A DNA stretch of 64,000 bases from Escherichia coli (GTDB lineage: Bacteria; Pseudomonadota; Gammaproteobacteria; Enterobacterales; Enterobacteriaceae), in the NCBI RefSeq assembly GCF_003334765.1, contig NZ_QOWT01000005.1, one strand, 5' to 3'. The position numbers were made by a program, and so were the translations under genes. The notes under the pieces were generated by a model. The model saw nothing but the letters and a program-made list of their open reading frames with translations, was not told where the DNA came from and ran no database searches. Below are positions 55,490-60,107 of the stretch, one piece after another. Numbering within the stretch: position 1 is the first letter of the stretch; each line of letters opens with the position of its first letter.

Positions 55490-58400
55490 ATGAAATCAAT
55501 ATTGTATTATTTAGAGCCACGTACAGAATTAAATGACAAATTATTTCGCTATGCAACACTACGCTCTTATCTACTACCTGAAATTGATGGCCTTAGGATA
55601 GCTGATAAGAGCCTCGATTTTAAAATGATCGTTTCTCGTACGATTTATAATAAAGCAAAACAAAATAATTTAAAAATGGAGGGTATCGATTTTATAATTA
55701 TTGATGAAGATGTATTTGAAAAGAACTCATATCTGAAGAATATTAATGTTAGTAATGAATTATATCATGGGAATTTAAATATAAAGGCTAATGAAGAACT
55801 AAAATCAATCATATCTGCTTGCCTTCCTGTTGATTATAAACCAGATATTATTATTTCATATGAAAGCCCAGCTCCATTTTTTAAAGAGATATTTCCATCA
55901 TCTTTACTTTTAAACGCTATGTTTGGAATTTTTTCAAGGGCACCATTTCCTGCATATGGTTTATTAGACCCATGTGGTTTGTATGAATATTCATATCAAT
56001 ATAAATATGCTGATAAAATTCGTGCTGAGGAGATTTCAGAAGAAGAAAAGGAAGTTATAAAATTACTCAGAAGACAAAGTTCAAGAGCACTTGCTGCTTA
56101 TCATCCTCTCAAGAAATATATTTCATCATTATATGAAAAATATGATCGACTTGTTGTATTAGCATGTCAAGTGGATAACTATTTTTCTTATAATAGTTGT
56201 ACCAATTATCCATCACAATATGCGATGGTGGAAGATGTTCTTTCTCAAGTTCCATCAAATATTGGTGTTATAGTTACAGAACATGGCTATAAAAGACAAA
56301 TAAGTGACGAGCAAATTGAGTCTTTAAATGAAAAATACAGTAATTTTATATATTTTTCTAAAAAAGATGTATTCACACCAAGTCAATTTATTCTTCCTTA
56401 TGTAGATGGTGCTTTATCAGTCTCGTCATCGATTGGTTATCAGGCTGCTTTATGGCAGATTCCATATTTTGGTCTTGGAAAATCACAAGTCGATGTACTC
56501 TGTTCAAATACATCATTAATGAGCTTCGTTAATGATGTTGAAAAAGGCATAAAGATTGATCGTGATAATATTCTTTATGTTTTACTTTCAAAAGTTCACT
56601 TATCACATAAAAATGATTTGTTTAATGGAAAATCTTATCTAAATAAGTTGAAGGATTTATTTAATAAGTTTACCTCTAATTGCGACGAATATGAGTATTT
56701 TAACACTAAAAAAAGTATTGATGAAGTTCGAAAAGATATCATCTGTGGCAACAGAGAATGGTTACTGAAAAAAAACTTTATTGACTCAAAATTAGTTCCT
56801 GAAGTAGACCATTTACGTGTTGCAATGTCGCATTCAAAAGCGATCTCTTATGATCTTTTTGATACTCTTGTTGAACGTGATTTTGTTGAACCTCATGAAT
56901 TATTTAATCTAATTGAATCCCGTGTACGTAATGAGTTAAACAATAAAAACTTCCCTTTCTATTATGTAAGACGACAAGCCGAAATTGACTTGCGCAGAGA
57001 GACAAGAGGTGAGTTTGAAATTACTCTCGATGAAATTTACGAAAGATTTCCAAGATACTTTGATCTTACTTTAGAACAACTAGAGAAGATAAAAAATATA
57101 GAAATAGATGCTGAAGTCGAACTCGTTCATCCGAAAAAAGAAATGGTTCGTGAATTTTATTTTTCTCAAATGATTTGTGAAAGTGTATCTATCATTACAG
57201 ATATTTATCTTTCTCAGAATGTTATTGAGCGTATTTTACAAAAAGTAAAAATTAGTGGTTACAATAAATTATTGGTTTCAGCAGAAACTAAAACAAGAAA
57301 ACATAACGGAACTATTTATCCTGAATATTTGAAATATATAAGAGATAATTTTGATATTAATGCAGGACAGGCTCTTCATGTCGGTGATAATAAACAAGCT
57401 GATGGTGATATGGCTAAAAAACATGGCATAAAAACATATGTATTTCAAAAAGCGATTGATAATTACAAAAAATCTTTAATTGCTGATATTTTACGTTCCA
57501 GTATTAATCATCCAGGTATTTCGAGTTCTGTTATTAATGGTTTGTTTGCTAACAAATATCACGCAGGACACTGGTTTAAAATTAACAAGGAATCAATTTT
57601 TAATGCTGACGAATATAATTATGGCTATATGGCAATAGGGCCTCTTGTTGTTGGCTTTACTCAGTGGTTGTATCGGCGGGTTAATAAATTAGGTATCAAA
57701 AAATTATATTTCTTATCCCGCGATGGATGGATTCTTAAAAAAACATTCGATTATTTTTATCCTGAATCATCATCTGGCATCAAGACCGAATACCTGTACA
57801 GCTCTCGTCGAACTGCAATGGTAGCATCGTTAAGAAATATTGATGATATTATTGAAGTTGCCTCTCAAAACTTCAATGCTAGAAAGCTAAGTGACTTTTT
57901 ATCTACTCGTTTTGGGCTGGATGTGGATACTGTTAAAAAATCTGTTCTTGAAAAATATAATTACAAGCATGACACTATTGTTTCTCCTTATTTTGAATTT
58001 GGAAAGCTGATTGGTTTTTTAAAAGATATTCATCATACAATATTGTCTAATGCAAAAAATGAACGTGAAAGCTATATCGATTATTTACGAGAAACTGGAT
58101 TTGAAAATGATTGCTTAAATGGCGGTGCTACTGTTGTTGATATTGGTTACAGTGGTTCCATGCAATATTATTTAAAAAAAATACTGCAATGCCCTTGTGT
58201 GAACGGATTTTATTTTTTAACACATCACCATAGTCGTGATTATTTTTCAAATGATCATTTTGAAGGTTTCTTGCAAAATCTTGATGATCATAAGATCGCT
58301 TATAGACATGGATTAAATGATCATGTGTTTATTTTTGAAGCAGCATTAAGTTCCCCTGAAGGAAGTCTGATTAAAATGGAAGGGAAAGGTCAAGAAAGAG

Positions 58401-58999
58401 AAATGATTTTTCTCGAGGCAGAAGAAGAGATTGTAAGAAAAAATGCTCTATTAGGAACACATCGTGGCGTAATGGACTTTGTTCATGATATCAAAACTCG
58501 TTTTGGTTCTTACTTTAAATACATTGAATTTTCTCCTATTCTTTCTTCTCAACTTATTTTGAATTTTGCGAATAATCCCAACGGTATAGATGCAGGGATG
58601 TTTGCTTCTCATGAAGTCGAAAATGTTTTTGGTGGGGGGTCTGTATGCTTAATTTCGCCTTTACTAGATTGCTATAAGGACTCTAATGGCACCATTAACC
58701 CTAAAATTATCGATGAGTTATTAAAAGCATCTAAATGGAAGAGAGGTGCCAGTGCTTATTATAACTTAGTCAATGGAACTCAACCGCGAGTTAATCCTGC
58801 TAAAATGCCAGCGCCATCTGTTAACCCAGTTGTTGTGAAGCAAACGCCACAAACTACTTATGCACATCCTTTAAAGACAACTACGCAGCGTAAACTTGCT
58901 AAGTTAAAAAAAGACCCATATTTATTCTTTAATGATTCCCAAAAACCTCTTTTAAAAAGTTTACGATTGTTCTTCAAAAATACATCAAAGCTTAATTAA
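55490..58999 (+). CDS. kps region 2 (serotype-specific) large multidomain protein; putative capsule polymerase/modifying enzyme with central HAD-like domain
   Basis: 1169-aa ORF, strongly AT-rich codon usage; HAD motif I DLFDTLV at 56852-56872 and GDxxxD-like motif HVGDNKQADGD at about 57377-57410; flanked by kpsT and kpsS. Confidence 0.65.
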   Translation: MKSILYYLEPRTELNDKLFRYATLRSYLLPEIDGLRIADKSLDFKMIVSRTIYNKAKQNNLKMEGIDFIIIDEDVFEKNSYLKNINVSNELYHGNLNIKANEELKSIISACLPVDYKPDIIISYESPAPFFKEIFPSSLLLNAMFGIFSRAPFPAYGLLDPCGLYEYSYQYKYADKIRAEEISEEEKEVIKLLRRQSSRALAAYHPLKKYISSLYEKYDRLVVLACQVDNYFSYNSCTNYPSQYAMVEDVLSQVPSNIGVIVTEHGYKRQISDEQIESLNEKYSNFIYFSKKDVFTPSQFILPYVDGALSVSSSIGYQAALWQIPYFGLGKSQVDVLCSNTSLMSFVNDVEKGIKIDRDNILYVLLSKVHLSHKNDLFNGKSYLNKLKDLFNKFTSNCDEYEYFNTKKSIDEVRKDIICGNREWLLKKNFIDSKLVPEVDHLRVAMSHSKAISYDLFDTLVERDFVEPHELFNLIESRVRNELNNKNFPFYYVRRQAEIDLRRETRGEFEITLDEIYERFPRYFDLTLEQLEKIKNIEIDAEVELVHPKKEMVREFYFSQMICESVSIITDIYLSQNVIERILQKVKISGYNKLLVSAETKTRKHNGTIYPEYLKYIRDNFDINAGQALHVGDNKQADGDMAKKHGIKTYVFQKAIDNYKKSLIADILRSSINHPGISSSVINGLFANKYHAGHWFKINKESIFNADEYNYGYMAIGPLVVGFTQWLYRRVNKLGIKKLYFLSRDGWILKKTFDYFYPESSSGIKTEYLYSSRRTAMVASLRNIDDIIEVASQNFNARKLSDFLSTRFGLDVDTVKKSVLEKYNYKHDTIVSPYFEFGKLIGFLKDIHHTILSNAKNERESYIDYLRETGFENDCLNGGATVVDIGYSGSMQYYLKKILQCPCVNGFYFLTHHHSRDYFSNDHFEGFLQNLDDHKIAYRHGLNDHVFIFEAALSSPEGSLIKMEGKGQEREMIFLEAEEEIVRKNALLGTHRGVMDFVHDIKTRFGSYFKYIEFSPILSSQLILNFANNPNGIDAGMFASHEVENVFGGGSVCLISPLLDCYKDSNGTINPKIIDELLKASKWKRGASAYYNLVNGTQPRVNPAKMPAPSVNPVVVKQTPQTTYAHPLKTTTQRKLAKLKKDPYLFFNDSQKPLLKSLRLFFKNTSKLN

Positions 59000-59108
59000 T
59001 ATAATGTGAGTCGCACTATGGTGTGACTCTTTTTTATATGTCAGTGATAGTTATTAATGAAATATTTAATGCGCGAAGGTGTACGATTTTTACAATATTT
59101 AGAGACTG

Positions 59109-60107
59109 GTGGGTCAAATGAGTATTTCTTTGAAAAATATTGATTTTGCTAAAGGTCCTGTTGATTCCCTCCATCATGATTATTACTTATGGCGAGGGAA
59201 GAACATTGAGGATAAAAGACTTTTTCTCGTTTTCTCATCTCGGGGAGCAGGTCCTGGAGAATTTAGTTTTTTCAAAACTTTTGATGCGCTTAATGTAAAT
59301 GTTTTGCATGTTACACCCTCTGATTTTTCATGGTACCAAAAAGGGTTAGTCGGTTTAGGGAGTGATTTGCCTTCTGCATTTAAAGCCCTATCTGACCGAA
59401 TAGATAATTTCTGTATTTATCATAAAATAAAACAAATTATCTGTGTAGGGGCTTCCATGGGAGGATATGGTGCTTTAATTTATGGGGCTTTATCTAGTAG
59501 AAAAATAAAAACAACACTTATTCTTTTTGGCACCGAAACAATATTAAAACTTCCTTATTCTAAAAGTTCTGAGAGTGAATTTGATATTCTCAAAAAATTT
59601 AAAGATGTAAGGTTTCTAGATTATTCTGATCTTGATGTGAATATGATATTTGGTGAGTTTGATATTGTAGATACTTATTGTGCTTTATCGATGCGACATG
59701 ATCGAAATTTTTCATTTTTTTCATGCACTAGCGCCTCACATGTTGTTCCGGAATACTTAAATAGACAAATTGGAATTGTTAATTTTTTTACAGACTTCTT
59801 ATCGGGTGGAAGATCTTTTATTGGAAGAGGCCACATTGCTTCTGAGCTTTATCCTGAGGATATTTCTCCTCTTCTGTTCTCGAAACAATTTACTGAGGAA
59901 TACAATAATGCCCTCCTCTGTTGCTTGAAAAAATATCCTTCATTTGGGTTTGCATGGAATAGATTAGGCGTATATTTACACAATATAGGAGATCTGGCTG
60001 GGTCTTTAGCAGCATTAAAAAGAGCATTTTTCATCAACCCTGATTATCCAAATACAATTGAGCATCTTAACTCGGTAAGAAATAAACTAAAAACTAAAAA
60101 CTTTTAG
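59109..60107 (+). CDS. kps region 2 protein with alpha/beta-hydrolase-like GxSxG motif and C-terminal TPR-like segment
   Basis: 332-aa ORF, AT-rich; GASMGG nucleophile-elbow-like motif; C-terminal helical repeat (AWNRLGVYLHNIGDLAGSLAALKRAFFINPDY). Confidence 0.6.
   Translation: MGQMSISLKNIDFAKGPVDSLHHDYYLWRGKNIEDKRLFLVFSSRGAGPGEFSFFKTFDALNVNVLHVTPSDFSWYQKGLVGLGSDLPSAFKALSDRIDNFCIYHKIKQIICVGASMGGYGALIYGALSSRKIKTTLILFGTETILKLPYSKSSESEFDILKKFKDVRFLDYSDLDVNMIFGEFDIVDTYCALSMRHDRNFSFFSCTSASHVVPEYLNRQIGIVNFFTDFLSGGRSFIGRGHIASELYPEDISPLLFSKQFTEEYNNALLCCLKKYPSFGFAWNRLGVYLHNIGDLAGSLAALKRAFFINPDYPNTIEHLNSVRNKLKTKNF

Follow-up and report, generated by a model that had tools for sequence, protein, structure and literature searches.

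Two 2026 studies have described Escherichia coli group 2 capsules whose region 2 is built around one very large polymerase. KrkA, the K13/K20/K23 polymerase (GT140 Kdo transferase plus ribosyltransferase; Govind et al., JBC 2026, PMC12887879; PDB 9YFX-9YFZ), adds both Kdo and ribose in vitro in its K13 form and is the sole class member with demonstrated activities of this kind. The accessible text of the kTYPr study (Miravet-Verde et al., Nat Microbiol 2026, PMC13171606) describes region 2 around one ORF of >1100 aa with such an architecture in K13/K20/K23, K16, K19, K74, K95, K97 and new types, and assigns to ORFs of this size a Kdo transferase resembling GT99 together with a ribofuranosyltransferase-phosphatase. 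Other relevant enzymes are WbbB, the GT99 beta-Kdo transferase of Raoultella terrigena (PDB 5FA0/5FA1, 8CSB-8CSF); Bcs3, with its CrpP-CriT unit (PDB 8A0C, 9H50; PMC10299916); the Thermobacillus composti PRP-gPRT protein (7SHG); and CsaC (SacC; PDB 6YUO), which O-acetylates the capsule of N. meningitidis serogroup A. According to the literature, every known retaining Kdo transferase has the Asp of QXXXD, without exception; this residue is invariant in GT99/GT107/GT140 and essential in WbbB, KpsC and KrkA, with D232A and D160A variants dead. Here we compare these systems with a kps locus in a 64,000-nucleotide stretch of E. coli DNA (the window).

Region 2 is the kTYPr K107 genotype

As the initial annotation of the window had it, only two genes, which we call ORF-A and ORF-B, separate kpsT from kpsS (Table 1); both reading frames are intact and the flanking genes lie where they had been placed. 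The two ORFs have a GC content of 0.28-0.35, compared with 0.43-0.55 for the conserved kps genes and 0.51-0.61 for the gsp genes, which bears out their reported AT richness; horizontal acquisition likewise held up as part of the core interpretation. The longest reading of ORF-B starts from a GTG (59109-60107, + strand), and ATG 59118 is its best start. An ops element precedes kpsM; elements of this kind are where RfaH loads in group 2 kps loci, allowing the region 3 transcript to continue into region 2. A terminator-like hairpin lies between ORF-A and ORF-B, and the count of such hairpins in the region is not above chance.

Table 1. Features of the kps locus, in window coordinates
Feature	Position	Strand	Remarks
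ops element	53813..53820	+	GGCGGTAG; exact match, 33 nt upstream of kpsM start
kpsM	53853-54629	+	region 3, ABC transporter; start from RefSeq annotation of identical locus
kpsT	54626-55303	+	region 3, ABC transporter; same orientation as ORF-A and ORF-B
ORF-A	55490..58999	+	intact ORF, 1169 aa; ATG start, AGGAG 8 nt upstream
Kdo-transferase-like GT-B domain (predicted), ORF-A residues 1 to ~440	55490..56809	+	GT99/GT107/GT140 fold; Q227-V-D-N-Y231 replaces QXXXD
HAD-type phosphoribosyl-phosphatase (PRP/CrpP-like, predicted), ORF-A residues ~441-660	56810..57469	+	putative nucleophile D455 in DLFDT; motif IV G632-D633...D638
PRPP-dependent glycan phosphoribosyltransferase (gPRT/CriT-like, predicted), ORF-A residues ~661-1046	57470..58627	+	profile match to 7SHG, Bcs3
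Pro-rich linker and basic amphipathic C-terminal tail, ORF-A residues 1047-1169	58628..58996	+	conserved RKxxKLxxxPYxFFxDSK
Terminator-like hairpin	59008..59035	+	9-bp stem, 5 GC pairs, then T6; in 118-nt ORF-A/ORF-B gap
ORF-B	59118..60107	+	329 aa; ATG start used by RefSeq and kTYPr
Alpha/beta-hydrolase domain, ORF-B residues ~20-235	within 59118..60107	+	triad S113, D185, H208
TPR tail, ORF-B residues 240-329	within 59118..60107	+	
kpsS	60185-61393	-	region 1; poly-Kdo linker synthesis; converges on ORF-A/ORF-B
kpsC	61428-63455	-	region 1; poly-Kdo linker synthesis
kpsU/kdsB	63452 onward (start of gene, to 64000)	-	region 1; CMP-Kdo supply

This two-gene region 2 is the already catalogued kTYPr K107 genotype (2026; reference GCF_035831355, NZ_JAYMNE010000021.1:75644..89898). 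In each, a group 2 kps context holds a K-specific pair of ORFs, 1169 and 329 aa long, and the MD5 of ORF-B equals that of K107_9. K107_10 matches ORF-A in length and in HAD coordinates (450-655); its MD5 is not equal, so the two alleles differ at one residue at least. The RefSeq allele of ORF-A is WP_134355222.1, annotated 'hypothetical protein', and the allele of ST131 strain 2822 differs from ORF-A by 4 aa. Of 5426 complete E. coli genomes, 22 carry DNA 99.7-100% identical to ORF-A plus ORF-B, with both genes annotated 'hypothetical protein'.

The locus, which had been left without a serotype name, now has a name in kTYPr, where the accessible text of PMC13171606 treats K107 as a genotype only; we found no K antigen with defined enzymology that matches it exactly. 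The same text predicts the identical three modules for the large-ORF set. Calling the layout unusual was, however, an overstatement: the types listed above are similar, KrkA is characterised, and within this recently described class the K107 locus is rather ordinary. We found 63 homologues of ORF-A, many within kps-like loci, such as those of Yersinia intermedia and Cupriavidus taiwanensis; the ORF-A/ORF-B pair also occurs in Kluyvera intermedia (adjacent locus tags), Cupriavidus and metagenome contigs. Residue conservation in ORF-A was counted over 41 homologues.

ORF-A is predicted to combine a Kdo-transferase fold with a ribosyltransferase unit

The order of modules in ORF-A is that of KrkA: Kdo-transferase-fold domain, HAD phosphatase, PRPP transferase and amphipathic C-terminal tail. 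The initial annotation had recognised the central HAD-type domain from its DLFDTLV and GDxxxD motifs and left the domains on either side as of unknown type. The HAD assignment stands, with the fold given by profile alignment and with D455, F457, D458, T459 and G632-D633-x4-D638 invariant in the 41 homologues; the flanking domains, in contrast, can be assigned by homology. ORF-A as a single sequence matched Bcs3 in phmmer (E 4e-28), and its profile reached E 3e-59 to Bcs3 and 8e-53 to 7SHG. The profile covers the whole PRP and gPRT unit, spanning the entire dual-domain T. composti ribofuranosyltransferase (chain residues 26-632 of 648). D455 has Bcs3 D386 as its aligned counterpart, and the D386A mutant of Bcs3 is inactive; SRD745G aligns with Bcs3 D680, while VD884IGYSG adjoins the Bcs3 alignment at its end, the location of E818, making D884 the approximate counterpart of E818. 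R744, D884 and G886 are invariant in the homologues and D745 is nearly so. The catalytic Asp/Glu equivalents of Bcs3 and 7SHG are therefore kept, which implies PRPP-dependent transfer followed by 5-dephosphorylation. On this sequence evidence, the HAD domain is a predicted phosphoribosyl-phosphatase fused to a PRPP-dependent ribofuranosyltransferase.

The N-terminal domain alone had no significant sequence match in Pfam, dbCAN or PDB, and it is only ~13% identical to WbbB, again with no sequence-level match. Its AF2 model (pLDDT 94.6) nevertheless has a Kdo-transferase fold, and hhalign aligned the domain with the KpsS/KpsC profile (97.3%, E 2e-11); six of the 41 homologues match PF05159, the family of KpsS and KpsC (GT107), whose genes belong to this locus. 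ORF-A aligns with these enzymes at their Q, H and SSS/T(S)xxG motifs, Q227 falling on the Kdo-carboxylate-binding Gln and H265 on the histidine of HP; these two residues are spaced 38 apart, as they are in KpsC. Whereas KpsS (Q233VYND, HP275) and KpsC (Q156TFND, HP194; Q484VEDD, HP522), which make the poly-Kdo linker, have QXXXD and HP, ORF-A has QVDNY and EHG: the HP proline is missing, and the His varies within the family.

The C-terminal tail contains 20 K/R and 6 D/E, its RKxxKLxxxPYxFFxDSK motif is retained across homologues, and residues 1146-1169 have a hydrophobic moment of 0.56-0.59, compared with a whole-protein 95th percentile of 0.46. It is probably a membrane or export-machinery anchor; KrkA was made soluble only after removal of its analogous amphipathic C-terminal module. 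Taken together, the sequence, profile and fold evidence supports the earlier proposal of a single multi-enzyme polymerase.

ORF-B is a probable capsule O-acetyltransferase

The hydrolase-like GxSxG motif reported for ORF-B corresponds to G111-A-S113-M-G115, which is conserved, as is the Ser-Asp-His triad, so the protein is probably catalytic; the TPR-like tail was also recovered. The best structural match is CsaC, in agreement with the suggested modifying esterase or acyltransferase, and by this analogy ORF-B is a probable capsule O-acetyltransferase. The two proteins share 14% identity, and ORF-B differs in its additional 90-residue TPR tail and in its putative substrate polymer; CsaC acts on the ManNAc-1-phosphate polymer of the serogroup A capsule. 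KrkA likewise belongs to a region 2 of small size in which an acetyltransferase has its own gene. ORF-B is accessory, because the Yersinia locus has a polymerase homologue but no ORF-B homologue.

Alternative readings of the two proteins

In ORF-A, Tyr231 takes the place of the nucleophile Asp that is canonical for retaining Kdo transferases (D232 in WbbB), which leaves the mechanism and the Kdo anomer uncertain. Y231 falls on the QXXXD Asp column in three independent hhalign alignments and in a 9-sequence profile alignment, and position 231 is Tyr in 36 of the 41 homologues, Gln in 3 and His in 2, but never Asp. The accessible text of the literature on K107 and the large-ORF capsule class gave no description of a missing QXXXD Asp. 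Given how strictly that residue is conserved in known retaining enzymes, the domain may instead be an inverting (single-displacement) or non-canonical transferase whose product, like that of K16, K74 and K95, contains alpha-Kdop or perhaps Kdof, and not beta-Kdop, as in K13, K19 and K97; the layout shared with K16_8 (HAD at 440-650 of 1137 aa) points the same way. We regard this as tentative. At the Q+2 residue, D229, 28 of the 41 homologues, all close relatives included, have D or E, and D229 could serve as a displaced nucleophile, while E125 lies in a [Y/W/F/H]E motif (kept in 37/41) that resembles the general-base 'YE' of KrkA and KpsS1 and fits a retaining second half-reaction. Moreover, the residue equivalences to Kdo transferases come from sequence alignment at ~15% identity.

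It is somewhat doubtful that ORF-B is instead an esterase (e.g. a de-O-acetylase), or that it is non-catalytic and acts through its TPR region as an adaptor or chain-length factor for the polymerase. Its Pfam matches, Abhydrolase_1 and Hydrolase_4, are weak, TPR domains are known in capsule polymerases such as Cps3D, and a TPR domain appears among the InterPro matches listed for K16_7, its kTYPr neighbour at 24.8% identity. However, CsaC, the single best structural match, shares this fold and is a genuine capsule O-acetyltransferase, the conserved triad favours catalysis, and O-acetylation is precisely what separates related K types. No signal peptide was seen on inspection of the N-terminus of the translation, so ORF-B would be cytoplasmic, where a capsule-acting esterase would have no obvious role. 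A very improbable reading makes ORF-A a Bcs3-type polymerase (Hib, K18, K22, K100) of a ribosyl-ribitol-phosphate, teichoic-acid-like capsule. Bcs3 provides the only PDB sequence matches of the single protein, and overall size and module order are similar, but only the CrpP and CriT modules are alike (query 424-786; profile positions 435-876). The partner module in Bcs3 is a TagF-like ribitol-phosphate transferase and that in ORF-A a predicted Kdo-transferase fold; furthermore, region 2 has no CDP-ribitol synthesis gene, and the SH3b domain of Bcs3 was not detected in ORF-A.

Proposed route to the K107 capsule

We consider it quite probable that ORF-A, in region 2 of this group 2 kps locus, is a multi-enzyme polymerase of a [Ribf-Kdo]n product that ORF-B probably O-acetylates; what we show is the K107 identity, the homologies and folds of the domains, the conserved catalytic residues and the genomic setting, and the donor substrates, polymer, acetylation and step order are what we infer. 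The C-terminal half of ORF-A would act as a two-step, PRPP-dependent ribofuranosyltransferase, the HAD module then taking off the 5-phosphate with D455 as nucleophile. The N-terminal GT-B domain would attach the second sugar, which is most probably Kdo, with CMP-Kdo supplied by KpsU of the same locus as donor. Anchored at the inner membrane through its basic amphipathic tail, ORF-A would extend the polymer on the KpsS/KpsC poly-Kdo lipid linker for export by KpsMTED, and would differ as a polymerase from WbbB, which caps the O antigen with one Kdo. ORF-B, a putative cytoplasmic acyltransferase of the alpha/beta-hydrolase fold (Ser113-Asp185-His208), would probably O-acetylate the polymer from acetyl-CoA, and its TPR tail may act in docking.

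By analogy with KrkA, the K107 product is most likely an O-acetylated [Ribf-Kdo]n capsule made as K13 is. Since housekeeping metabolism or the kps locus already provides PRPP and CMP-Kdo, such a pathway would need no nucleotide-sugar synthesis genes of its own, which would explain how a cassette of two genes can specify the capsule.

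Region 2 comprises two AT-rich genes of genotype K107

The complete left half of a group 2 capsule locus adjoins the gsp type II secretion operon in the window, and the context is that of kpsMT - region 2 - kpsSCUDEF. Between kpsT and kpsS, the initial annotation had described two AT-rich genes, and this is borne out by the ORF calls and by the GC content, which is 0.28-0.35 over ORF-A (a predicted three-module capsule polymerase) and ORF-B (a putative capsule O-acetyltransferase), whereas the conserved kps genes have 0.43-0.55 and the gsp genes 0.51-0.61. The motifs quoted there are found in the translations of both ORFs and are kept in homologues. 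Its ORF-B gene also stands; only the start is revised, to the most likely ATG at 59118 (329 aa), which is the sole correction to that observation. Separately, we observed that a poly-T/A run whose length differs by 1 nt alters the KpsS C-terminus: KpsS here has 402 aa and ends in ...KVKKL, compared with 412 aa and ...KVKKIITMNDIKTSS in the O25b:H4-ST131 strain 2822. This C-terminal length difference falls exactly at the region 1/region 2 junction.

Features of the capsule locus and its surroundings, in window coordinates
Feature	Position	Strand	Remark
gspD-gspL/yghD type II secretion operon	43321-52796	+	complete; directly upstream of the capsule locus (annotation of identical region)
AT-rich non-coding stretch	52797-53852		between yghD/gspM and kpsM
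ops element	53813-53820	+	GGCGGTAG
further copies of the ops octamer	5902, 12973, 45334 on - strand, 60841
kpsM	53853-54629	+	start from RefSeq annotation of identical locus
kpsT	54626-55303	+
ORF-A	55490-58999	+	1169 aa
terminator-like hairpin	59008-59035	+	GAGTCGCAC-TATG-GTGTGACTC then TTTTTT
ORF-B	59109/59118-60107	+	two candidate starts
kpsS	60185-61393	-	convergent with ORF-A/ORF-B
poly-T/A run, kpsS 3' end	~60185-60200	-
kpsC	61428-63455	-	convergent
kpsU	after kpsC	-	convergent

The 2026 kTYPr catalogue of E. coli transporter-dependent capsules lists K107 as a new genotype of lineage G2A, with the two K-specific ORFs K107_10 (1169 aa, HAD at 450-655/661) and K107_9 (329 aa, alpha/beta-hydrolase region 21-144, TPR 241-329) (PMC13171606). 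As an identity check, MD5s of our own translations were compared with the sequence MD5s in the kTYPr InterProScan table. The ORF-B translation (59118-60104) has the MD5 of K107_9, e84dbe74d86b57a13c4a47f10528c0ab. ORF-A is equal to K107_10 in length and domain coordinates (NCBIfam HAD match at 450-655) and has a different MD5, so that at least one substitution separates the two. This mismatch fits the few-residue differences seen between alleles, as the ORF-A allele differs by 4 residues from that of ST131 strain 2822. Given the MD5 match of ORF-B and the length and domain coordinates of ORF-A, the locus, judged by its translations, is K107 of kTYPr.

K107 is a type by genotype only in kTYPr, where it is positively associated with invasive disease isolates (PMC13171606). 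Among 5426 complete E. coli genomes, 22 carry the 4.9-kb region 2 at 99.7-100% DNA identity. Their sources are human blood (O25b:H4-ST131 isolates among them), chicken meat, river water and a bird; all 22 label both ORFs 'hypothetical protein'. The locus itself is already catalogued and has no characterised K antigen. The kind of system is also already known, from Bcs3 (2023), 7SHG-type ribofuranosyltransferases, KrkA (2026) and the kTYPr set K13_K23 to K19 (2026).

The C-terminal part of ORF-A is a predicted ribofuranosyltransferase

Pfam searches with ORF-A alone and with ORF-B alone gave nothing significant, and NCBIfam gave HAD matches below threshold only. Among PDB sequences, the only match of ORF-A alone was Bcs3 of H. 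influenzae b (E 4e-28, residues 424-786). A profile built from 41 ORF-A homologues matched Bcs3 at E 3e-59 and the dual-domain protein 7SHG of Thermobacillus composti at E 8e-53, over chain residues 26-632 of 648, which correspond to ORF-A residues ~441-1046. The structure of the 7SHG ribofuranosyltransferase reportedly dates to 2022.

In Bcs3, Ribf-5-P is moved from PRPP by CriT and the 5-phosphate is taken off by the HAD enzyme CrpP; the variants D386A (CrpP) and D680A/E818A (CriT) lose activity wholly or in part (PMC10299916). ORF-A D455, the HAD motif I nucleophile, aligns with D386 and is invariant in the 41 homologues together with motif IV (G632-D633...D638). D745 (in SRDG) aligns with D680 and is nearly invariant in the same set, and the invariant D884 (VDIGYSG) corresponds only approximately to E818, lying just beyond the end of the Bcs3 alignment. 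The initial annotation was right to call this domain a HAD-type phosphatase, as D455 and GDxxxD are invariant and the alignment with PRP modules is full-length. Since it aligns with the PRP units of Bcs3 and 7SHG, the HAD domain is assigned the phosphoribosyl-phosphatase role within a ribofuranosyltransferase. We also considered a KdsC- or NANP-type precursor phosphatase, which is ruled out by the full-length, specific alignment with gPRT-fused PRP modules. We thus predict that the C-terminal part of ORF-A is a PRP plus gPRT dual-domain ribofuranosyltransferase using PRPP. Two Bcs3-type features are absent, namely the TagF-like CDP-ribitol transferase module (CroT) and, in the locus, CDP-ribitol synthesis genes.

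Residues 1047-1169 combine a linker rich in Pro with a basic segment (20 K/R vs 6 D/E) that carries the conserved motif RKxxKLxxxPYxFFxDSK and has a strongly amphipathic end (hydrophobic moment 0.56-0.59; 95th percentile 0.46). In KrkA, a similar amphipathic module at the C-terminus had to be removed for solubility and is proposed to be membrane-associating (PMC12887879).

The N-terminal domain is related to retaining Kdo transferases

The N-terminal domain had no significant Pfam match, its profile had no PDB sequence match, and no Kdo transferase matched this part of ORF-A in single-sequence or profile searches of the PDB. K107_10 is missing from the kTYPr dbCAN table (PMC13171606). The AlphaFold2 model of residues 1-445, with 24 homologues in the input, is very confident (pLDDT 94.6). 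In a Foldseek search against the PDB, the GT99 beta-Kdo transferase WbbB filled the top 14 places (E 1e-11), with KrkA and KpsC next, and the modified GT-B fold common to these three enzymes is present in the model. Profile-profile comparison with the KpsS/KpsC modules, represented by the locus's own modules and orthologues from two other loci, gave a probability of 97.3% (E 2e-11), and PF05159 was matched by only 6 of the 41 homologues. Taken together, the Foldseek, profile-profile and PF05159 matches indicate that the N-terminal domain, as modelled and aligned, is a divergent homologue of retaining Kdo transferases, a relationship visible by fold and profile-profile comparison only. kTYPr drew the same relationship from predicted structures (PMC13171606).

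The family of this domain has 41 members, which come from Enterobacterales, Aeromonas, Vibrio, Cupriavidus, Chromobacterium and others. When homologues were sought a third time, now with the N-terminal profile, the search found stand-alone or differently fused copies in Aliarcobacter, Enterovibrio and Yersinia frederiksenii, and none among typed E. coli proteins. The KrkA paper also names a GT140 cluster 'E_coli_O25b' (41% identical to KrkA); ORF-A is not this protein, because no similarity between its sequence and the KrkA GT140 module could be detected.

The QXXXD aspartate is absent from the N-terminal family

The nucleophile in WbbB, KpsC and KrkA is the Asp of QXXXD, reported to be absolutely conserved and essential (WbbB D232, KpsC D160, KrkA D193). 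In retaining Kdo transferases, the Gln of this motif binds the Kdo carboxylate and the His of the HP motif touches the CMP phosphate. The KpsS and KpsC of the window have the motifs QVYND/HP, QTFND/HP and QVEDD/HP. Q227 of ORF-A aligns with KpsS Q233, KpsC Q156 and KpsC Q484 and is Gln in 41 of 41 homologues, and the motif reads Q227-V-D-N-Y231, with Tyr at the nucleophile position by sequence alignment rather than by superposed structures. Position 231 is Tyr in 36 homologues, Gln in 3, His in 2 and never Asp, which makes the absence a family-wide property and not the decay of one copy. H265 aligns with the HP His, at the Q-to-H spacing of KpsC (38), within E-H265-G, so that Gly and not Pro comes next; the position is His in 24 homologues, Tyr in 15 and Asp in 2. 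E125 (Glu in 37 of 41), inside a [Y/W/F/H]E motif, resembles the general-base YE of KrkA (E102) and KpsS1 (E132), a likeness of sequence only.

The QxxxY motif leaves three options. The nucleophile may be displaced to D229, a position that is Asp in 25 of the 41 homologues, Ser in 9, Glu in 3, Asn in 3 and Thr in 1; the mechanism may be non-canonical; or it may be inverting. Without the nucleophile Asp, the enzyme would have to work in another way; the simplest would be an inverting single displacement, which would give alpha-Kdo. We tentatively raise the possibility, which we think doubtful, that the N-terminal family (~440 residues) is an unclassified glycosyltransferase family of GT99/GT107 descent that lost the nucleophile Asp and works by another mechanism. 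That the change from QXXXD to QxxxY marks a mechanistically distinct Kdo transferase is rather unlikely. If it does, and the transfer is inverting, the family would join GT30 as the second Kdo-transferase family of that kind, and it could account for capsules with alpha-Kdop (K16) or Kdof (K74/K95).

kTYPr flags alpha-Kdop (K16) and Kdof (K74/K95) as at odds with retaining enzymes. Its nearest typed relatives are K16_8 (28% identity) and K74_8 (25%), for whose alpha-linked Kdo it notes that an inverting enzyme would be needed (PMC13171606). There, K16_8 has the same layout as ORF-A, with its HAD at 440-650 of 1137 aa. The kTYPr-listed MD5s of the K16, K74 and K95 polymerases matched none of 269 proteins and none of the cluster members of the candidates at ~28% identity, which come from Chromobacterium, Rahnella and metagenomes.

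QxxxY-type domains were also observed in proteins of 416-684 aa from Enterovibrio norvegicus, Aliarcobacter butzleri, Arcobacter, Yersinia frederiksenii and Paraburkholderia. Occurring alone or otherwise fused, the domain appears to be a mobile module that is not bound to the ribosyltransferase.

ORF-B is a likely accessory O-acetyltransferase

ORF-B has an alpha/beta-hydrolase fold with the nucleophile-elbow Ser, Asp and His in canonical order, and a 42-member alignment keeps G111-x-S113-M-G115, D185 and H208. An exhaustive representative search found 199 family proteins at E <= 1e-10, some via the TPR region only, and the search of the PDB with the ORF-B profile was dominated by TPR proteins, with nothing informative on the catalytic domain. 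ORF-B is most likely an O-acetyltransferase, with predicted acetyl-CoA-dependent activity; alternatively, it may be an esterase or an adaptor.

Homologues of ORF-B and ORF-A lie side by side in three places: in Kluyvera intermedia, where their locus tags are adjacent (identities of 71% and 71%), on a metagenomic contig (75% and 74%) and in Cupriavidus taiwanensis (46% and 51%). The kps-like locus of Yersinia intermedia has a polymerase homologue (60% identical) and no ORF-B homologue, which argues that ORF-B is an accessory modifier. In that locus, a different accessory gene (13845-14861, - strand), encoding a 338-aa Beta_helix/NosD protein, follows the polymerase at the position of ORF-B.

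Proposed synthesis and expression of the K107 capsule

PRPP and CMP-Kdo are obtainable without dedicated synthesis genes, as the locus includes kpsU and kpsF, so that a two-gene cassette would suffice. We propose that, starting from the poly-Kdo lipid primer made by KpsS/KpsC, ORF-A would by turns add Kdo and add ribose-5-P, which it would dephosphorylate, and that the chain would be modified by ORF-B and exported by KpsMT and KpsED. We infer all K107 substrates and the product. Direct biochemical precedent for the architecture comes only from the K13 enzyme KrkA, to which both Kdo and ribose addition can be ascribed in vitro (PMC12887879).

Transcription probably starts at the region 3 promoter. 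With the annotated kpsM start at 53853, the ops element is 33 nt upstream, at the end of the ~1-kb AT-rich stretch (GC ~0.31-0.39), as expected for the leader of an RfaH-dependent region 3 promoter. The window holds four further copies of the octamer, with 1.2 expected by chance. Between ORF-A and ORF-B lies a strong terminator-like hairpin, of a kind no more frequent in the region than chance; if functional, it would keep ORF-B expression below that of the polymerase unless antiterminated.

ExPEC lineages carry K107, among them blood isolates of O25b:H4-ST131. The predicted single-protein polymerase using PRPP and CMP-Kdo leads to a concrete antigen prediction, an O-acetylated Ribf-Kdo polymer, that could serve typing, phage or depolymerase targeting and chemoenzymatic glycoconjugate synthesis, for which Bcs3 is a precedent. 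The absent QXXXD Asp poses a sharp mechanistic question for the field of retaining Kdo transferases and could explain the origin of alpha-Kdo or furanosidic Kdo capsules.
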